Shown piece by piece: positions 1,426 through 49,676 of a stretch of 64,000 nt of DNA. The stretch spans positions 2,176,001 through 2,240,000 of the forward strand of contig CAXXKT010000001.1 of the NCBI GenBank assembly GCA_963662405.2, in the 5' to 3' direction. Under the pieces are notes generated by a model. The model made no database searches, had not been told where the DNA came from, and was given only the letters and a program-made list of their open reading frames with translations. This stretch comes from Syntrophales bacterium (GTDB lineage: Bacteria > Desulfobacterota > Syntrophia > Syntrophales > UBA2210). The position numbers and the translations under genes are program-made. Position 1 is the first letter of the stretch. Every line of letters begins with the position of its first letter.

Positions 1426-3129
1426 GTGGAACTGAGTGGAGCTGAAATATTGATACAATCATTGGTGGCGGAAGGGGTCGATACCATCTTCGGATATCCC
1501 GGTGGTTCCGTTCTCGATACCTATGACGAACTTTTTAAGTCATCGATCAAGCATATCCTAGTCCGGCACGAACAGGGCGCGGCCCACGCGGCGGACGGAT
1601 ATGCGCGATCATCGGGGAAGGTGGGGGTGTGTCTCGCAACCTCGGGTCCCGGCGCCACCAACACGGTCACGGGGATTGCCACGGCCTACATGGACTCGAT
1701 ACCGATGGTCATCCTGACGGGACAGGTCCAGACCCCCTTCATCGGCACCGACGCATTTCAAGAGGTTGACATCACGGGAATTACACGCCCCTGCACCAAA
1801 CACAACTTCCTGGTCAGGCGTGTCGACGAGCTGGCTAATACAATTCGGGAGGCATTTTACATCGCCCGTTCGGGACGTCCCGGTCCCGTTCTTGTCGACC
1901 TTCCGAAAGATGTCATGCAGGCCAAGACCGAGTATCGTGAACTGAAACCTCTGAGCACGGGAACTTCCGAGCCGGTCTATCTCCCCGACGCTGGGCAACT
2001 CGCCGAGACACTCGACCTGATCAGGAAGGCCCGGAAACCGGTTCTCCTTATCGGAGGAGGGATCCTTCACGGCCGGGCGACGGAAGAACTGACCGAATTC
2101 GCCCGCAAGGTCAACATACCCGTCACCTCGACCCTCATGGGGCTGGGGGCCTTTCCCGGTACCGATTCGCTCTGGATGGGGATGCTCGGGATGCACGGCA
2201 CCTATTACGCGAACATGGCCATCAGCCACTGCGATCTCCTCATCACGCTGGGGGTGCGTTTCTCCGATCGGGTGACCGGGAGGCTCGCCACCTTTGCATC
2301 GAACGCGACCATCGTCCAGATCGATATCGACGCCGCCTCGATCAACAAGAACGTCCTCGTTCACATTCCCATCGTGAGCGACTGCAAGTCCGCACTGGCC
2401 CAGCTGAACGCCATGCTGAACAAGAACGGCCTCGAACAGATCCGGGAAGGCCGTAAGGAATGGCTCGCAGAGATCGACGGGTGGAGGATCGAAGGACCGA
2501 TGGGATACTGTCAGGGGGATACGATCAAACCGCAGTGTGTCATCGAGACATTGTACAAGATGACCCAAGGGGACGCCATAGTGGCAACCGAGGTGGGGCA
2601 GAACCAGATGTGGACGGCCCAGTTTTTCCCCTTTGCCCGGCCGAATACGTTTCTCTCGTCAGGGGGACTCGGGACGATGGGGTACGGCTTCCCGGCAGCC
2701 ATCGGTGCCCAGGTCGCCTTTCCTGACAGGCTGGTCGTTGATATCGCCGGGGACGGGAGCATCCAGATGAATATCCAGGAGCTTGCCACGGCCGTCAACT
2801 ACAAGCTGCCCGTGAAGATCGTGATCCTCAACAACGGCTATCTCGGGATGGTGCGCCAGTGGCAGGAACTCTTTTATGGAAAGAGATACTCCCATACCGA
2901 TATCGGCGGCCAGGTCCCCGATTTTGTGAAGCTTGCCGAGGCGTACGGCGCCGTGGGTCTGCGAGCCACAAAACCGGAGGAGGTTGAGGCGGTTCTCGCC
3001 AAAGGGTTGGGACACCCCGGACCGGTTGTGATGGACTTCGTGGTCGAGGCGGAGGAGGGAGTCTATCCCATGGTGAACCCCGGCGCCTCGCTGTCGGATA
3101 TGAAGCTGAGCGGCGGGATCGGTATGTAA
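1426..3129 (+). CDS. ilvB: Acetolactate synthase large subunit
   Basis: FGYPGG, RHEQGA, TSGPGATN, GDGS...NN TPP motif, GMVRQWQ; GTG start after AGGAGG. Confidence 0.95.
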   Translation: MELSGAEILIQSLVAEGVDTIFGYPGGSVLDTYDELFKSSIKHILVRHEQGAAHAADGYARSSGKVGVCLATSGPGATNTVTGIATAYMDSIPMVILTGQVQTPFIGTDAFQEVDITGITRPCTKHNFLVRRVDELANTIREAFYIARSGRPGPVLVDLPKDVMQAKTEYRELKPLSTGTSEPVYLPDAGQLAETLDLIRKARKPVLLIGGGILHGRATEELTEFARKVNIPVTSTLMGLGAFPGTDSLWMGMLGMHGTYYANMAISHCDLLITLGVRFSDRVTGRLATFASNATIVQIDIDAASINKNVLVHIPIVSDCKSALAQLNAMLNKNGLEQIREGRKEWLAEIDGWRIEGPMGYCQGDTIKPQCVIETLYKMTQGDAIVATEVGQNQMWTAQFFPFARPNTFLSSGGLGTMGYGFPAAIGAQVAFPDRLVVDIAGDGSIQMNIQELATAVNYKLPVKIVILNNGYLGMVRQWQELFYGKRYSHTDIGGQVPDFVKLAEAYGAVGLRATKPEEVEAVLAKGLGHPGPVVMDFVVEAEEGVYPMVNPGASLSDMKLSGGIGM

Positions 3130-38397: not shown

Positions 38398-38533
38398 GGG
38401 CGCTCCACGATAAGACCGCTCCACACCCCCTGAACATGCGGCGGCTGCCCTGAGCTGGTTCGCTCGGCGCGCAGCGCCTCCCGAACCAGCGGATGGACTT
38501 GTCCCCTGCGGGGCAGGTCATCCGCCGCATGTT
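38391..38533 (+). repeat. 140-bp gene-less mini-cassette, copy 1 (at attI)
   Basis: GTTCAGGGGG...CCCCCTGAACATGCGGCGG...CCGCCGCATG|TT. Confidence 0.95.
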
Positions 38534-39631: not shown

Positions 39632-40393
39632 ATGGGTTTTGACAAATCCGAAATAGCACAACTTCTTGCAGATTGTGGCCGAAGGTGTTGCATCTGCGGC
39701 AGATTGCACAAAGTCCAGGTTCATCACATTGTCCCGGGCGATGATGATATAAGCAATGGTATTCCTCTTTGCCCAAATTGTCATGATGAGGCCCACACTG
39801 AGTACTCTACAGGTAGAACAACTCGAACATATACGCATGAAGAATTGAAGCTTCATCGCAAGAGAACAATTGAACAAGTGAAGCGAGAAGCAAAGTGGAA
39901 ACCAGGTGGTGCTGATTGGCGCAAAGACAAAAAGTTGGTAGCGTTTTTCGCACAATGTTTAGATCGACCTGCTTTCCGTACATACTTCCATCAGGAACTT
40001 AGTTTTTCTGCGTTCGATCAAGCAATGGAAGACACTATTGTAGCCCTAAACACGGGATATTGGAAAATGAGGGATGGCACTTTGATTAAAAGAGCAGAAG
40101 GAAAAGCTTGTGTCGTCAATCCATTGTGGCGTGGAAAGCTTGAACAAATTACTAATCTCATCGAAGATGTTCGGCGAAAGTTTGCAGACCTATTTGGATT
40201 TAACGAAATGCTTTTCCATTTGCGTGGGCCACGCCATTTACACAATCAAGAGTTGGAAGCTTATATGGAAGGTTTTCGAGGAAATAGAGACCTTGGTCAA
40301 TGGATGGATAAGAAACGTCAGGAAGCAATTGACGTCATGAACTCGATTCTTGAAGAGGTAGGAATGCAACCTCTCCGAGGGCTTCGAGAGTAA
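39632..40393 (+). CDS. Cassette 2: HNH endonuclease-domain protein
   Basis: N-terminal CCIC...HHIV...N..PLCPNCH. Confidence 0.8.
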   Translation: MGFDKSEIAQLLADCGRRCCICGRLHKVQVHHIVPGDDDISNGIPLCPNCHDEAHTEYSTGRTTRTYTHEELKLHRKRTIEQVKREAKWKPGGADWRKDKKLVAFFAQCLDRPAFRTYFHQELSFSAFDQAMEDTIVALNTGYWKMRDGTLIKRAEGKACVVNPLWRGKLEQITNLIEDVRRKFADLFGFNEMLFHLRGPRHLHNQELEAYMEGFRGNRDLGQWMDKKRQEAIDVMNSILEEVGMQPLRGLRE

Positions 40394-40398
40394 AAAAC

Positions 40399-40455
40399 AT
40401 CGAACAAATTAATCCAGCGGACGGCTTACAGCCGCCGCTGATCATTGCGTTCAGG
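40399..40455 (+). other. attC 2
   Basis: ATCGAAC...AATCCAGCGG...CCGCTGAT...GTTCAGG. Confidence 0.9.
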
Positions 40456-40591
40456 GGGCGCTCCGCGATAAGACCGCTCCACACCCCCTGAACATGCGGC
40501 GGCTGCCCTGAGCTGGTTCGCTCGGCGCGCAGCGCCTCCCGAACCAGCGGATGGACTTGTCCCCTGCGGGGGAGGTCATCCGCCGCATGTT
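40449..40591 (+). repeat. 140-bp gene-less mini-cassette, copy 2
   Basis: One difference from copy 3. Confidence 0.95.
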
Positions 40592-40629
40592 CGGCTACAA
40601 AAAGGAGGAATGATAAAAAGTCTTCATGA

Positions 40630-40800
40630 GCTGTGAATTGGGATACACTGTTTGAAACTTTATAGTTTTGGGCAGCAAGGCTACTGTTCGACATGTTTAC
40701 TGGTCTTCGAGACCGCAAAGGAGAATGAAGAGCTGTAGCCGCAACATTCAATGATCTTCGAGATCGAATAGGAGATTGGGACCAATTCACCTGACAGGCG
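40630..40800 (+). ncRNA. Candidate IS110 bridge/guide RNA
   Basis: Two parallel hairpin-containing loops carrying AAAGGAG (target-like) and CATTC/ATAGGAG (donor-junction match). Confidence 0.6.
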
Positions 40801-40826
40801 CTGTCCAAGATGTGAGGAGGCGTTCT

Positions 40827-41939
40827 ATGAAGATGAGTATCGGGGTTGACCTTCACAAGACGCAGTTTACCGTTTGTTGTTTGAGTGAAGATCGGAGTGT
40901 TCAGGAGTCGGGCATCTACCCGACGACTGATCGAGGTTACCGGGCATTTATCATGAAGGTGTCCAACTGGAATGAGGGCGGTTACGAGGTCACGGCAGCG
41001 GTGGAATCAACAGGGAACACCCGACACTTTCGCAACCGGTTTTTGAAGGCGGGGATTGAGGTCAAGATAGTGAACACCTTGAAATTCAAGGTTGTAAATG
41101 AGTCAGTAAAAAAGACTGACAAGCATGATTCCCGCACATTGGCTGAGTTTCTTGAGAAAGATATGCTTCCCGAGTCCATTCTTTGTTCGCAGGAAAGCGA
41201 GGACATTCGAAGGCTTCTCAAGTCACGTTCTGTTCTGGTGAAAGCTTTGGTATCCTTGAAAAACCAGATACACGGTTTATTGCTTGGATATGGGATAGAG
41301 AGTCGGCGGGGACAGCTGCAGAGCAAAAAAGAAAGGCAGCGAATCCTTGACGGTCTCGCGGACCATAGGAGTTACGGAAACGCTGCCCGAGCGGTAAAAC
41401 CGCTTCTTGGTACAATAGACCAAATTGCATCCGAGGTCAAAGGACTTGAGCGCGTATTATCTGATCTTGTTTCTGAAGACGAGGATGTTGCTCTGTTGCA
41501 AACGATTCCTGGCGTTGGAATAATAACAGCAGCGACGATTCGGGCTTATACCGATGACATCAACCGATATGAGAGCGCCAAGCAGTATGCTGCTCATGCC
41601 GGTTTGGTACCATGGGTTCAAAACTCCAACAAGACCATTCGCCATGGTCATATTACCAAGCGAGGCCCCGTGGAACTGAGGACGGCTTTTGTGCAAATGG
41701 TAATGGGGATGCTACGGCTTCGGAATAAAACCGATGGATATTGGCTTATGTACAAATACAAAGCCATGAAAGAGAACAAGGGAACCGGGAAGAGCGTAAT
41801 AGCGACGGCGCGAAAGATGAGCACTATTGTATATGCCATCTTGAAGAAGGGGGAGCCGTTTGATCCATCGAAAATGCTGCCAGACCCGAAATATGTAGAG
41901 ATGAGTAAGGTTGCGAGGTGTTATGCTTTGGCCGTTTAA
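40827..41939 (+). CDS. IS110-family DEDD recombinase/transposase
   Basis: IGVDLHK, VESTG, KTDKHDS, TIPGVG, GLVP...NSN, ARK. Confidence 0.93.
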   Translation: MKMSIGVDLHKTQFTVCCLSEDRSVQESGIYPTTDRGYRAFIMKVSNWNEGGYEVTAAVESTGNTRHFRNRFLKAGIEVKIVNTLKFKVVNESVKKTDKHDSRTLAEFLEKDMLPESILCSQESEDIRRLLKSRSVLVKALVSLKNQIHGLLLGYGIESRRGQLQSKKERQRILDGLADHRSYGNAARAVKPLLGTIDQIASEVKGLERVLSDLVSEDEDVALLQTIPGVGIITAATIRAYTDDINRYESAKQYAAHAGLVPWVQNSNKTIRHGHITKRGPVELRTAFVQMVMGMLRLRNKTDGYWLMYKYKAMKENKGTGKSVIATARKMSTIVYAILKKGEPFDPSKMLPDPKYVEMSKVARCYALAV

Positions 41940-42002
41940 ATTTTAACCATGGGCCTGTTTGACAGGCTCTCCATGAATTGACTTTTTATAGGAGTTAAAA
42001 AT

Positions 42003-42677
42003 ATGACAATAAGCGATGCACTAATGATAATAGCCGTTTTAGCTGCTCCTTTCCTAGCGGTTTTTGCACAAAGACAAATTGATTTATGGCGGGAACAAAG
42101 ACAAAGAAAATTATGGGTTTTTAAAACACTTATGGCCACACGTGGTCGAACTTTGTCTCCAGAGTATGTACAAGCTCTAAACATGATAGAACTTGAATTC
42201 CAAAAATCTTCTGAGAAACCTATCCGCGATGCATGGAAAGAGTACCATGATCATCTAAACTCTTATCCTCGTGAAGGTGAAAATCAGAAGGAGAGAGCTG
42301 CTGTGTGGGATGAAGCGTTGGCAAAACTGCTTGCTAATCTTCTTATTAAGATGAGTAAGGCTTTCTCATATGAGTTTGACGTAGTACAAATAAAGAAAGG
42401 GGCTTATTCACCTAAAGGTCATGCAACCACAGAAATCGAACTTCAGTTACTTAGGCGTTTTGCACTAGAATGGCTTGCTGGTGAAAGGAAGGTGTCTGTT
42501 TCAATAGTGCCTAAAGACGATGAGTCCGCTAAACAAGGTCAAGTATTTATGGCTGGTTTATCGGGCATTATCGAAGGCCAAAAACAAATAAAAGTTGAAT
42601 TGGTTTCTCAAATGGATGGTGATGACAAGCCGAACAATACTAATTCAGCCGACGCAAAAAGCCGCGCGGCTGATTAG
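42003..42677 (+). CDS. Cassette 3: N-terminal TM protein (DUF6680-like)
   Basis: TM helix followed by FKTLMATR...ALNMIELEF; reads through into attC. Confidence 0.7.
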   Translation: MTISDALMIIAVLAAPFLAVFAQRQIDLWREQRQRKLWVFKTLMATRGRTLSPEYVQALNMIELEFQKSSEKPIRDAWKEYHDHLNSYPREGENQKERAAVWDEALAKLLANLLIKMSKAFSYEFDVVQIKKGAYSPKGHATTEIELQLLRRFALEWLAGERKVSVSIVPKDDESAKQGQVFMAGLSGIIEGQKQIKVELVSQMDGDDKPNNTNSADAKSRAAD

Positions 42678-42688: not shown

Positions 42689-42824
42689 GGGCGCTCCGCG
42701 ATAAGACCGCTCCACACCCCCTGAACATGCGGCGGCTGCCCTGAGCTGGTTCGCTCGGCGCGCAGCGCCTCCCGAACCAGCGGATGGACTTGTCCCCTGC
42801 GGGGCAGGTCATCCGCCGCATGTT
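42682..42824 (+). repeat. 140-bp gene-less mini-cassette, copy 3
   Basis: Consensus-like copy. Confidence 0.95.
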
Positions 42825-46061: not shown

Positions 46062-46197
46062 GGACGCTCCGCGATGAGATCGCTCCACGCCCCCTGAACA
46101 TGCGGCGGCTGCCCTGAGCTGGTTCGCTCGGCGCACAGCGCCTCCCGAACCAGCGGATGGACTTGTCCCCTGCGGGGCAGGTCATCCGCCGCATGTT
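46055..46197 (+). repeat. 140-bp gene-less mini-cassette, copy 4
   Basis: About 5 substitutions versus copy 3. Confidence 0.95.
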
Positions 46198-46913
46198 AGG
46201 GCTTAAGAAAAAATGTCACAATTATCCTACGCACGAATAATGCTGGAGCAAATGGGGATACCATTTGAGGATATTCCAACATCAGATGAAAAAATGAAAA
46301 AGGAGGCGGATTTTCTAGCAAGTTTTGGTGATTCCAGAGTGCTTATCGAAGAAAAACTAAAAGAGGACGATCTGAGCTATCTTTCAGTTAGAGGACAGGA
46401 ATTAGAGGCTGGAGGAATCCATGAGCATTCTGTTCCACTGACACGAGATGAGACTATTTCGGGCATAATAAGGCATGCTGCGAAACAACTCAAGTCCTCA
46501 TCAGACAAGCCACATGATTTTCGATTATTGTGGTTTACTGCAACCGGCGTAGCAGCCGAGGCCAAAAGTGAACAGTTCATGGCAACACTTTATGGCCGAA
46601 CAAATATCATAGAGCGCGGCGCTAATGGCTACAAAAGGTGTTACTATTTCCGATATAGTGACTTTTATCGACGTTCAGCAATAATAGATGGTGCAGTAGC
46701 TGCATTCGTGGAGGATGCTTCCATTACTTTGAAACTCTGCTTGAATTCTTTATCCCCGAGATATTTAAACTTAAAACACTCAAGTGTTGTTAAACCTTTC
46801 AGGACTGCTGTTGAAGATCCCTTGGAACTTGAAACCAGAGGGAGTGCTTTTATATTAGATAACGATATTGATCGAAAAGACGAACAGAAACTGCTTGAGT
46901 ATCTAAAAAATAA

Positions 46914-49079: not shown

Positions 49080-49214
49080 GGACGCTCCGCGATAAGACCG
49101 TTCACGCCCCCTGAACATGCGGCGGCTGCCCTGAGCTGGTTCGGTTGGCGCGTAGCGCCTCCCGAACCAGCGGATTGACTTGTTCCTTTTGGGGTAGGTC
49201 ATCCGCCGCATGTT
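49073..49214 (+). repeat. Gene-less mini-cassette, copy 5 (139 bp)
   Basis: About 13 differences versus copy 3, many in loops or giving G-T pairs. Confidence 0.93.
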
Positions 49215-49235
49215 CAGGGTTACAAGGAGAGAATA

Positions 49236-49676
49236 ATGAAAATTTCAAGAGTTACAATACTAACGCTTGGCGTAGCCGATTTGGGTAAAGCGACAGAATT
49301 TTATGAGGCTGTACTTGGCATCCCTCCAAACAAATCTTTTGATGGAATCACTTTCATTGAGCTTCCAGGAACATGGATTGCTCTTTATCCTCTTGAAAAA
49401 CTTGCAGAAGATATTTCACCTGATGTTTCTGTTACTCGCAATGGGTTTAGTGGAGTTACGCTTGCCCACAACGCCGGAAGCAAGGAGGAGGTTTTAGAAA
49501 TTGTGCGGCGCGCGGAGTCAGCAGGTGCTAGGATTGTTAAGGAGCCTAAAGATACTGGATGGGGTGGTTTCAGTGGATACTTTGCCGACATTGATGGCTA
49601 TTACTGGGAGGTAGCTTGGGGACCAATGTTTGAGTTCACAGAAAATGGCGAAATGACATTTAAAAGAAAACCATAA
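49236..49676 (+). CDS. Cassette 11: VOC/glyoxalase family protein
   Basis: TLGVADL...FYE; WGGFSGYFADIDGYYWEV. Confidence 0.9.
   Translation: MKISRVTILTLGVADLGKATEFYEAVLGIPPNKSFDGITFIELPGTWIALYPLEKLAEDISPDVSVTRNGFSGVTLAHNAGSKEEVLEIVRRAESAGARIVKEPKDTGWGGFSGYFADIDGYYWEVAWGPMFEFTENGEMTFKRKP

Follow-up and report, generated by a model that had tools for sequence, protein, structure and literature searches.

An IS110-family element with a putative two-module guide RNA directed at gene starts in a Syntrophales bacterium

A stretch of 64,000 nt from contig CAXXKT010000001.1 of a Syntrophales bacterium (the window, whose positions are counted here from its first letter) contains an insertion sequence placed between the ribosome-binding site (RBS) and the start codon of a gene, and we asked how such an element could find a place of this kind and still leave the gene with an RBS. 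The motif AGGAG, read in the window sequence, bounds the element at 40603-40607 and at 41990-41994. The insertion lies within an integron cassette, 12 nt 3' of an attC-like repeat and 8 nt 5' of the ATG of a 224-amino-acid open reading frame (ORF), and excising the element in silico gives back an RBS 8 nt ahead of this ATG at 42003. We consider it likely that this is an active element of the IS110 family, provided with a bridge RNA or seekRNA aimed at gene starts, and that it rebuilds the RBS of the gene from its own right end. A preliminary description of the window had already proposed an IS110 element with a bispecific guide RNA in the non-coding left end, aimed at Shine-Dalgarno sequences; all the strings that it quoted were found at their places in the window, and natural covariation among relatives of the element bears the proposal out.

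The genome (3.8 Mb in 3 contigs) carries 9 copies of this IS110-family element at 100% identity, and the alignments of all 9 end at the same bases. AGGAG, which according to the preliminary description should recur at other insertion sites, is present at the left of all 9 copies; the base before it is A in 9/9 and the next one outward is A in 8/9, and beyond these positions the left flanks diverge. The right flanks diverge from the first base 3' of AGGAG, with an ATG 5-9 nt beyond it in 8/9 copies; the ninth (L008) faces the end of a convergent gene. One metagenome contig provided an extra right flank, again with an ATG, 8 nt beyond AGGAG, and the extra copies found in five metagenome-assembled genomes were 3 left-end fragments only. 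The element shows no inverted repeats at its tips, no target duplication and site-specific insertion, the combination that characterizes IS110 elements. The presence of AGGAG at both ends is an identity between donor and target and not a duplication, as the two copies differ in four relatives (L190, L065, L042 and L089). Non-coding sequence amounts to about 220 nt from the left end to the start codon and to 53 nt from the stop codon to the right end.

The recombinase encoded by the element contains the Pfam domains PF01548 (E 8e-19) and PF02371 (E 3e-20) and scores 228.9 bits against the NCBIfam model NF033542 "IS110 family RNA-guided transposase", for which the cut-off is 140. Residues D8, E60, D98, D101 and S267 align with D11, E60, D102, D105 and S241 of IS621, in a numbering that assumes a 2-residue offset of the Protein Data Bank (PDB) chain and with the roles of the residues taken from Hiraizumi 2024 (PMC11208158). 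Identity to IS621, ISCro4 and IS4321 is in the mid-20s per cent. The tblastn match to IS4321 shows 27% identity over residues 5-290 only; the match to IS621 scores 69 bits, much like that to IS4321, and phmmer aligns mainly the C-terminal domain. These similarities to IS4321 and IS621 do not by themselves place the recombinase in either the IS110 or the IS1111 group. The family of the recombinase is large, with 3696 proteins at E up to 0.001 among the 8000 scored.

Relatives of the element were collected in two sets. For the first, one genome per species was scanned and 77 loci were obtained, mostly in Desulfobacterales and Spirochaetia, with 52-91% protein identity, plus a clade in Lentisphaeria/Victivallales with 31-37%. 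One Spirochaetia genome (G001) carries 15 full copies, and a Marispirochaeta assembly 12 copies that are cut at contig ends. Scanning metagenome contigs for the 17-nt right end added 80 loci. A cultured strain is also represented: Thiospirochaeta perfilievii has a copy on its plasmid pSpe (L139:400-2030, NZ_CP035808.1) with 75% protein identity. This copy precedes by 6 nt the ATG of a G-, P- and K-rich ORF, some 40 codons long and without annotation.

The RNA alignment, built from 28 distinct left ends, revealed two parallel modules with invariant anchors and with variable short segments of fixed length. Results support a putative two-module RNA in the left end, whose predicted helices show compensatory changes. 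In the consensus fold, a pair in the stem that closes module 1 occurs as CG (12 sequences) or as UA (9); in the hairpin of the same module, one pair is GC in 21 and AU in 5, and another is UA in 20 and CG in 7. The hairpin of module 2 behaves similarly, with one pair GC in 15 and AU in 13 and another CG in 15 and UA in 10. As the outer helix recurs in at least 22 of the 28 relatives, the donor-binding module would lie within a multi-helix junction. In the target-binding module of the present element, the segment CATGTTTACT (40692-40701) is followed by the hairpin at 40702-40714. A consensus scan also returned a promoter-like site at 40638-40666 on the + strand (TTGGGA-17-TATAGT, 9 of 12) and a terminator-like hairpin at 40668-40691 on the same strand, directly ahead of the target module.

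If this RNA is a guide, its variable segments should change together with the sequences that they read, and this is what we observed for two of them. The left target guide, AAAGGAG in the present element, matches the left flank at its letter -7 with a frequency of 0.78 in the genome set, against 0.35 after shuffling, and at -6 with 0.96 against 0.67 (0/5000 shuffles in both cases). The letter one step beyond -7 did not covary with the flank (0.29 vs 0.24 shuffled). The same two positions were found again in 19 independent metagenome elements, with a match of 0.68 vs 0.34 at -7 (P=0.0004) and of 0.95 vs 0.76 at -6 (P=0.007). On the donor side, the complementarity of the guide CATTC to the first 5 nt of its own element was not reached in any shuffle (0/5000), and the variants GAATG, GCATG, GCACG, GTATG and GAGCG of these first 5 nt are each met by a matching or wobble-matching donor guide. 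The other donor guide, ATAGGAG, repeats the 7 nt that close the right end; neither of the two varies, and here we have an identity without covariation.

Nature also offers a retargeted element. In L190 the left target guide reads CACAGAG, and the left flank is CACAGAG too (7/7). This motif recurs 27 nt downstream in L190. Three loci in all (L190, L156 and L065) have left target guides that do not end in AGGAG, namely CACAGAG, CACGGAG and TTGAGAG, and the opposite strand of their target loop is without CAT. In L156, a stretch of 6 nt in the right flank agrees exactly with the complement of the right strand, in the register adjoining the core, and the left flank agrees with the element's own guide in 4/7 positions only.

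Natural variants also delimit the core at which strands would be exchanged. The preliminary description had allowed a core of up to 5 nt, corresponding to the whole AGGAG, and this did not hold. L190 shows CACAGAG both in its guide and at the left junction, and its right end is still ATAGGAG; the left-junction copies are TAGAG in L065, TGGAG in L042 and AAGAG in L089, with the right-junction copy remaining AGGAG. The left copy departs from AGGAG at positions -5 to -3 while the right one stays unchanged; therefore, exchange must fall within the last 2-3 nt, and a 5-nt core is ruled out by these four elements. Judged from the alignments, the rest of AGGAG is an identity apparently specified by both guides and does not belong to the core. 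With AG as core, assigned to the left end, the extensions are AGGAATG on the left (7 nt) and AGG on the right (3 nt).

What kind of sites does the element use? Among 48 right flanks from 21 elements of the genome set, 45 have an ATG 3-9 nt after AGGAG; the distance in the 48 flanks is 6 nt in 25, 5 nt in 9, 7 nt in 5 and another value in 9. In the unfiltered metagenome set, an ATG follows at 3-10 nt in 52/75. The bias does not simply reflect the motif: in G001 an ATG follows at 15/15 insertions vs 21/103 TAGGAG sites that are gene-start-like in an 800-kb sample of the genome, and in the genome of the present element an ATG follows 229/908 of the unoccupied AAAGGAG sites (25%), or 82/194 (42%) of those outside long ORFs as defined by a crude mask. 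A preference of the G001 insertions for a spacing beyond that of natural RBSs was not shown, the excess of TAGGAG...ATG over the control being mostly present already at 6 nt. The orientation of the element is always that of the struck gene. The right end is AGGAG in all copies; therefore, the struck gene keeps an RBS at the old distance from its start codon, in line with the RBS regeneration foreseen in the preliminary description. In the Lentisphaeria clade (L073-L089, chromosome CP091727), which has a different left-end RNA with guides still ending in AGGAG and a candidate right strand without CAT, an ATG comes soon after AGGAG in 10/10 right junctions found, and AAGGAG is present at 7/10 left junctions printed. 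Taken by itself, the 7-nt guide leaves the gene-start bias unexplained. A second guide could account for a good part of it, and selection against insertions within genes surely adds to it.

The candidate for this second guide is the strand opposite to the left target guide, formed by CAT, the complement of ATG, and six further letters. The preliminary description had proposed that this segment is aimed at the spacer and start codon, with a partial match to real sites, and pairing tests anchored on the ATG as well as the distribution of CAT agree with it. Over the 28 elements the six letters are rich in T (82 T, 43 A, 30 G and 13 C), and the strand of CAT plus six shows no change of length in 28/28 relatives while its letters vary. 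In most relatives it does not pair with the core. We compared the six nt before the ATG in this genome at the 8 used sites and at 207 unused AAAGGAG-ATG sites, and found 3.25 vs 1.80 Watson-Crick pairs with the strand (P=0.0008); the true order of the letters ranks 2nd of 120 orderings, and 1st when wobble pairs are allowed. At least 6 of 9 pairs are reached by 6/9 used sites vs 101/908 unused ones, and those unused sites that reach 7 of 9 pairs are in 18/21 cases gene-start-like.

The test was extended across elements. In 19 of them, cognate pairing anchored on the ATG amounts to 2.57 vs 2.03 after shuffling, and the antiparallel mapping of positions ranks 1st of 720, a result that does not depend on any one large group. 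In the 14 elements of the independent metagenome set, pairing was 2.64 vs 2.26 (P=0.049) with a mapping rank of 72 of 720; in the combined set (n=33), P is 0.0004 and the mapping ranks 2 of 720, with the signal strongest beside the ATG. Moreover, CAT is present in 51/51 elements with a guide ending in AGGAG and in 0/3 of the others, L065, L156 and L190 (Fisher P=4e-5). None of these three has a nearby following ATG, and all retain AATGA, a possible alternative partner of CAT. We think that CAT and its six letters are probably a loose guide for the last few bases of the spacer plus the ATG. Chances are about even that the target loop as a whole reads a translation start, with the Shine-Dalgarno sequence recognized by the strict 7-nt guide and the start codon plus the last spacer bases by the loose U-rich one, at an elastic distance.

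These observations can be assembled into a possible cycle. In the excised circle, the abutted ends would form a promoter (TTGACT, 17 nt, TG-n-TAAAAA) firing into the left end. Indeed, the joined ends read TTGACT, 17 nt and TAAAAA with TG ahead of it, as proposed in the preliminary description, and this arrangement is kept in 21/23 distinct relatives having both ends; the subterminal inverted repeats, which overlap it, are 6-11 bp perfect in 23 relatives. The left end would thus encode a bridge RNA or seekRNA of about 160-200 nt, folded, as covariation indicates, with the outer helix around the 5' hairpin, the target module and the donor module. CAU and the six U-rich nt may pair loosely with the spacer and ATG of the gene, a step to which the weaker pairing signal points. 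Strands would then be exchanged at the AG core, by analogy with the family mechanism and within the limit of 2-3 nt found here. The element would land between the RBS and the start codon in the orientation of the gene, and its right end would hand over AGGAG at the same distance. Host transcription may then run through the RNA and the recombinase gene and continue into the host gene. Such read-through would be possible because no terminator-like site was predicted between the stop codon and the right end of the element.

Several points weigh against such an active, gene-start-directed guide RNA. The shuffle tests take no account of kinship among the elements. The minimum free energy (MFE) fold of the single sequence is not significant (z -1.6), and an Rfam 15 scan of 40300-42300 (E up to 10) returned no family and two chance matches only; the guide transcript, with its ends and processing, is a prediction. 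Neither a circle junction nor an empty site was found in contigs from 4 DNA runs or in the relatives. In addition, among 30 relatives with one flanked copy no empty site was usable, the gene of the left flank being at 72-75% identity in a different neighbourhood. The left donor guide and CAT are invariant among AGGAG-type elements and thus beyond a covariation test. In G001 (L019-L034), 9/15 left flanks are TAT-AGGAG, nearer to the donor guide ATAGGAG, or to the element's own right end, than to the target guide TTT-AGGAG, with which the left flank agrees in 3/15. Several of these TAT-AGGAG flanks have a longer T-rich block in common, and L024 and L034 have the same 14-nt left flank with different right flanks, as do L025 and L031. 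The flanks of this genome could result from tolerance of mismatches, from capture through the donor loop, from a motif of the host or from rearrangement among the copies. As for the second guide, no covariation of the strand with the flank was detected across elements in core-anchored registers; the signal is modest, about 2.6 of 6 pairs vs 2.1, and appears when anchored on the ATG only. The spread of 3 to 9 nt from core to ATG is not obviously allowed by the solved geometry of IS621, and used sites in G001 do not differ from unused RBS-like sites with the same left motif (5.47 vs 5.43, with n=7 controls).

Part of these points would be accounted for if the guide read the 7-nt left half-site only, the RBS bias being left by purifying selection, with insertions inside genes disappearing and RBS-rebuilding ones doing no harm, and CAT plus six being a spacer or structural strand. 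The silence of the six letters in core-anchored registers, the small size of the ATG-anchored effect and the G001 sites, matched no better than unused ones with a tight motif and spaced like natural RBSs, all go in this direction, and the 3' strand of this loop contains an AUG with which CAT could pair. Nevertheless, we hold this explanation to be quite unlikely. The burst must be recent because the 9 copies are 100% identical, yet 8/9 are at gene starts vs 25% of unoccupied sites (42% outside long ORFs). Selection on position would also not explain why used sites exceed the 207 unused gene-start sites in their match to the guide, with the letter order 2nd of 120 and the true position mapping 1st of 720, nor why the length of the strand is invariant in 28/28 relatives with variable letters. 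CAT, moreover, is gone in 3/3 elements retargeted from AGGAG though AATGA, its possible partner, is retained.

The specificity for gene starts could also be real but read by the recombinase or through the state of the DNA (melting, transcription, bound ribosome or polymerase), and not by RNA-DNA pairing. An extra layer of this sort has been shown for ISPpu10 in the form of a stem-loop at the target, according to a preprint (10.64898/2026.03.19.712850). The variable distance from core to ATG fits contiguous pairing poorly, and the spacers of used sites are A-rich (46% A vs 31% at unused sites). Composition alone, however, does not produce the signal, as the order of the letters ranks 1st-2nd of 120 and the position mapping 1st of 720, and the presence of CAT tracks AGGAG-type guides (51/51 vs 0/3), which makes such a second gate very unlikely. 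It is hardly credible, finally, that the AGGAG segments of the left end are translational or regulatory signals, for example RBS mimics controlling the recombinase, with AGGAG recognized by the recombinase protein. AGGAG is itself a ribosome-binding motif, and short frames starting with ATG stand behind both of its copies in the left end, but these ATGs are 1 nt past AGGAG, too close for use. Furthermore, the two letters before AGGAG change jointly in RNA and flank in two independent sets, CACAGAG occupies both places in L190, and the CATTC of the donor loop changes with the first 5 nt of the element. An RNA guide directed at gene starts is the reading that we retain, and the features on which it is based are collected in the table.

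Table. Features of the element and of its insertion site in the window, followed by the regions of three relatives with other target guides (own coordinates).
Feature	Position	Strand	Remarks
Left target half-site plus core, AAAGGAG	40601..40607	+	original Shine-Dalgarno of the cassette gene, now left junction; identical to guide 40717-40723; 7-mer pattern recurs at all 9 genome copies
Insertion sequence proper	40606..41992	+	1387 bp, AG core counted once, at left end; limits common to 9 copies
Right donor segment GAATG	40608..40612	+	first 5 nt after core, putatively read by donor-loop guide CATTC; covaries with alignment columns 172-176, 28 elements, P<1/5000
Left subterminal inverted repeat	40613..40622	+	10 bp perfect, about 19 bp with 2-nt indel; holds -10 hexamer TAAAAA (40614-40619), TG at 40611-40612
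Outer helix P1, 5' strand	40633..40641	+	pairs with 40782-40790; same place, different sequences in at least 22/28 relatives
5' hairpin P2	40648..40675	+	MFE fold, position kept in alignment; 3' strand has alternative alifold partner, hence less certain
Target-binding module	40679..40740	+	closing stem GGCTAC 40679-40684/GTAGCC 40735-40740, inner stem 40686-40689/40730-40733, hairpin 40702-40714; compensatory changes in closing stem and hairpin
Candidate right target guide	40692..40700	+	CAT (40692-40694) plus six variable U-rich nt (40695-40700); complementary to top-strand spacer and ATG
Left target guide AAAGGAG	40717..40723	+	top-strand sense, would pair with bottom strand; letters -7 and -6 change with left flank in both independent sets
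Donor-binding module	40741..40781	+	guide CATTC 40745-40749, hairpin 40753-40765, guide ATAGGAG 40768-40774; hairpin covariation
Outer helix P1, 3' strand	40782..40790	+	pairs with 40633-40641
Recombinase gene	40827..41939	+	370 amino acids, own RBS at 40814-40820; likely start ATG 40827
Right subterminal inverted repeat	41978..41989	+	repeat at 41980-41989, overlapping -35 hexamer TTGACT (41978-41983)
AGGAG at right junction	41990..41994	+	left donor end plus core; acts as new Shine-Dalgarno, 8 nt ahead of ATG 42003
Downstream integron-cassette ORF	42003..42677	+	224 amino acids; RBS struck by the insertion
L190 regions	L190:1-220, 1440-1510		
L156 regions	L156:100-330, 1600-1660		
L065 regions	L065:1255-1500, 2620-2680		

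Some features around the element were also observed. At the left junction, an 8-codon frame (40611-40637) begins with an ATG 2 nt past the old RBS; this ATG and the next bases are kept in relatives, but they coincide with the -10 of the promoter and with the inverted repeat. A long attC-like repeat of about 200 bp, of which one copy spans 40393-40596, has its 3' end repeated at intervals of 3-4 kb that hold single ORFs; these 3' ends are at about 38502-38533, 40560-40594, 42793-42824, 46166-46200 and 49191-49242. This series looks like the cassette array of a chromosomal integron. Two further copies of the repeat are found elsewhere in the genome.

The bridge-RNA recombinases of the IS621/IS110 type (Durrant 2024, PMC11208160; Hiraizumi 2024, PMC11208158) resemble the present element in many respects. 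Both have a DEDD/Ser recombinase, with the five catalytic residues aligned, and encode the RNA upstream of the gene, within the left end, with the target module first and the donor module second. In both, each module consists of one guide in top-strand sense and one complementary guide, a short core is common to donor and target, a junction promoter arises at the circle, and TAT...ATA directly flanks the programmable donor segment. The order of the guides is the reverse of that in IS621, where the guide complementary to the top strand is the 3' one of each module; here it is the 5' one. The present element further differs by its long inverted repeats, perfect over 10 bp and about 19 bp overall, by a donor module that forms part of a multi-helix junction which the outer helix closes, and by a target that is not one repeat but a class of sites defined by function, namely Shine-Dalgarno plus start codon.

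The seekRNA elements of the IS1111 type, such as ISEc11, ISKpn4 and ISPa11, provide the second comparison (Siddiquee 2024, PMC11187229). Like them, the present element has subterminal inverted repeats (about 7-17 bp in the group) without target duplication, its extensions fit the rule of 7 on the left and 3 on the right if AG is the core, and the guide complementary to the top strand is 5' of the guide complementary to the bottom strand. Unlike them, it has its long non-coding region and RNA upstream, not downstream, of the recombinase gene, an arrangement that in the IS1111 type is limited to few exceptions such as ISMtsp17. The preliminary description had noted IS1111-like subterminal repeats together with an upstream RNA, and this comparison confirms what is visible in the sequence. 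The layout therefore appears, from its sequence, as a hybrid of IS110 and IS1111, with repeats and guide order of the latter and an upstream RNA.

Insertion between an RBS and a start codon has precedents in the family. IS900, IS901 and IS902 of Mycobacterium avium are IS110-family elements reported to insert between the RBS and the start codon, in one orientation and with variable spacing; in the IS900 group the transposase gene is opposite to the struck gene, whereas in the present element both have the same direction. The hed frame of IS900 lacks its own RBS and start codon. For this old observation of IS110 relatives between RBS and start codon, an explanation at the level of RNA can now be offered. 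ISPpu10 is also comparable: its "dual-match" mode uses a DNA stem-loop beside the target as an extra determinant (bioRxiv 10.64898/2026.03.19.712850). As in ISPpu10, the choice of site here needs more than a match to the main guide; unlike its stem-loop, the candidate determinant here is a further guide, directed to the start codon and matching it loosely. In the literature on IS110 elements and on RBS targeting by bridge RNAs we found no paper with this RNA logic, the supplements of Durrant 2024 and Siddiquee 2024, which were outside the search, being places where the motif may be listed.

If our reading is true, an RNA guide has been tuned to a functional class of sites, and the element resides in the 5' leaders of many genes, is transcribed by their promoters and repays them with a new RBS, which suggests a route by which an insertion sequence can spread among 5' leaders while doing its host little damage. 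The copy on the plasmid of Thiospirochaeta perfilievii makes the targeting rules testable in a cultured strain. Work is under way to turn bridge RNAs and seekRNAs into tools for programmable recombination, with rules learned from very few elements. To these the present family adds a layout in which IS110 and IS1111 features are naturally combined, a guide for gene starts in place of one repeat and, possibly, a split target with variable spacing. In comparison with the known systems, the mechanism is thus a known one; the layout and the class of target are unusual, and the split, elastic recognition on the right-hand side is the most interesting point.

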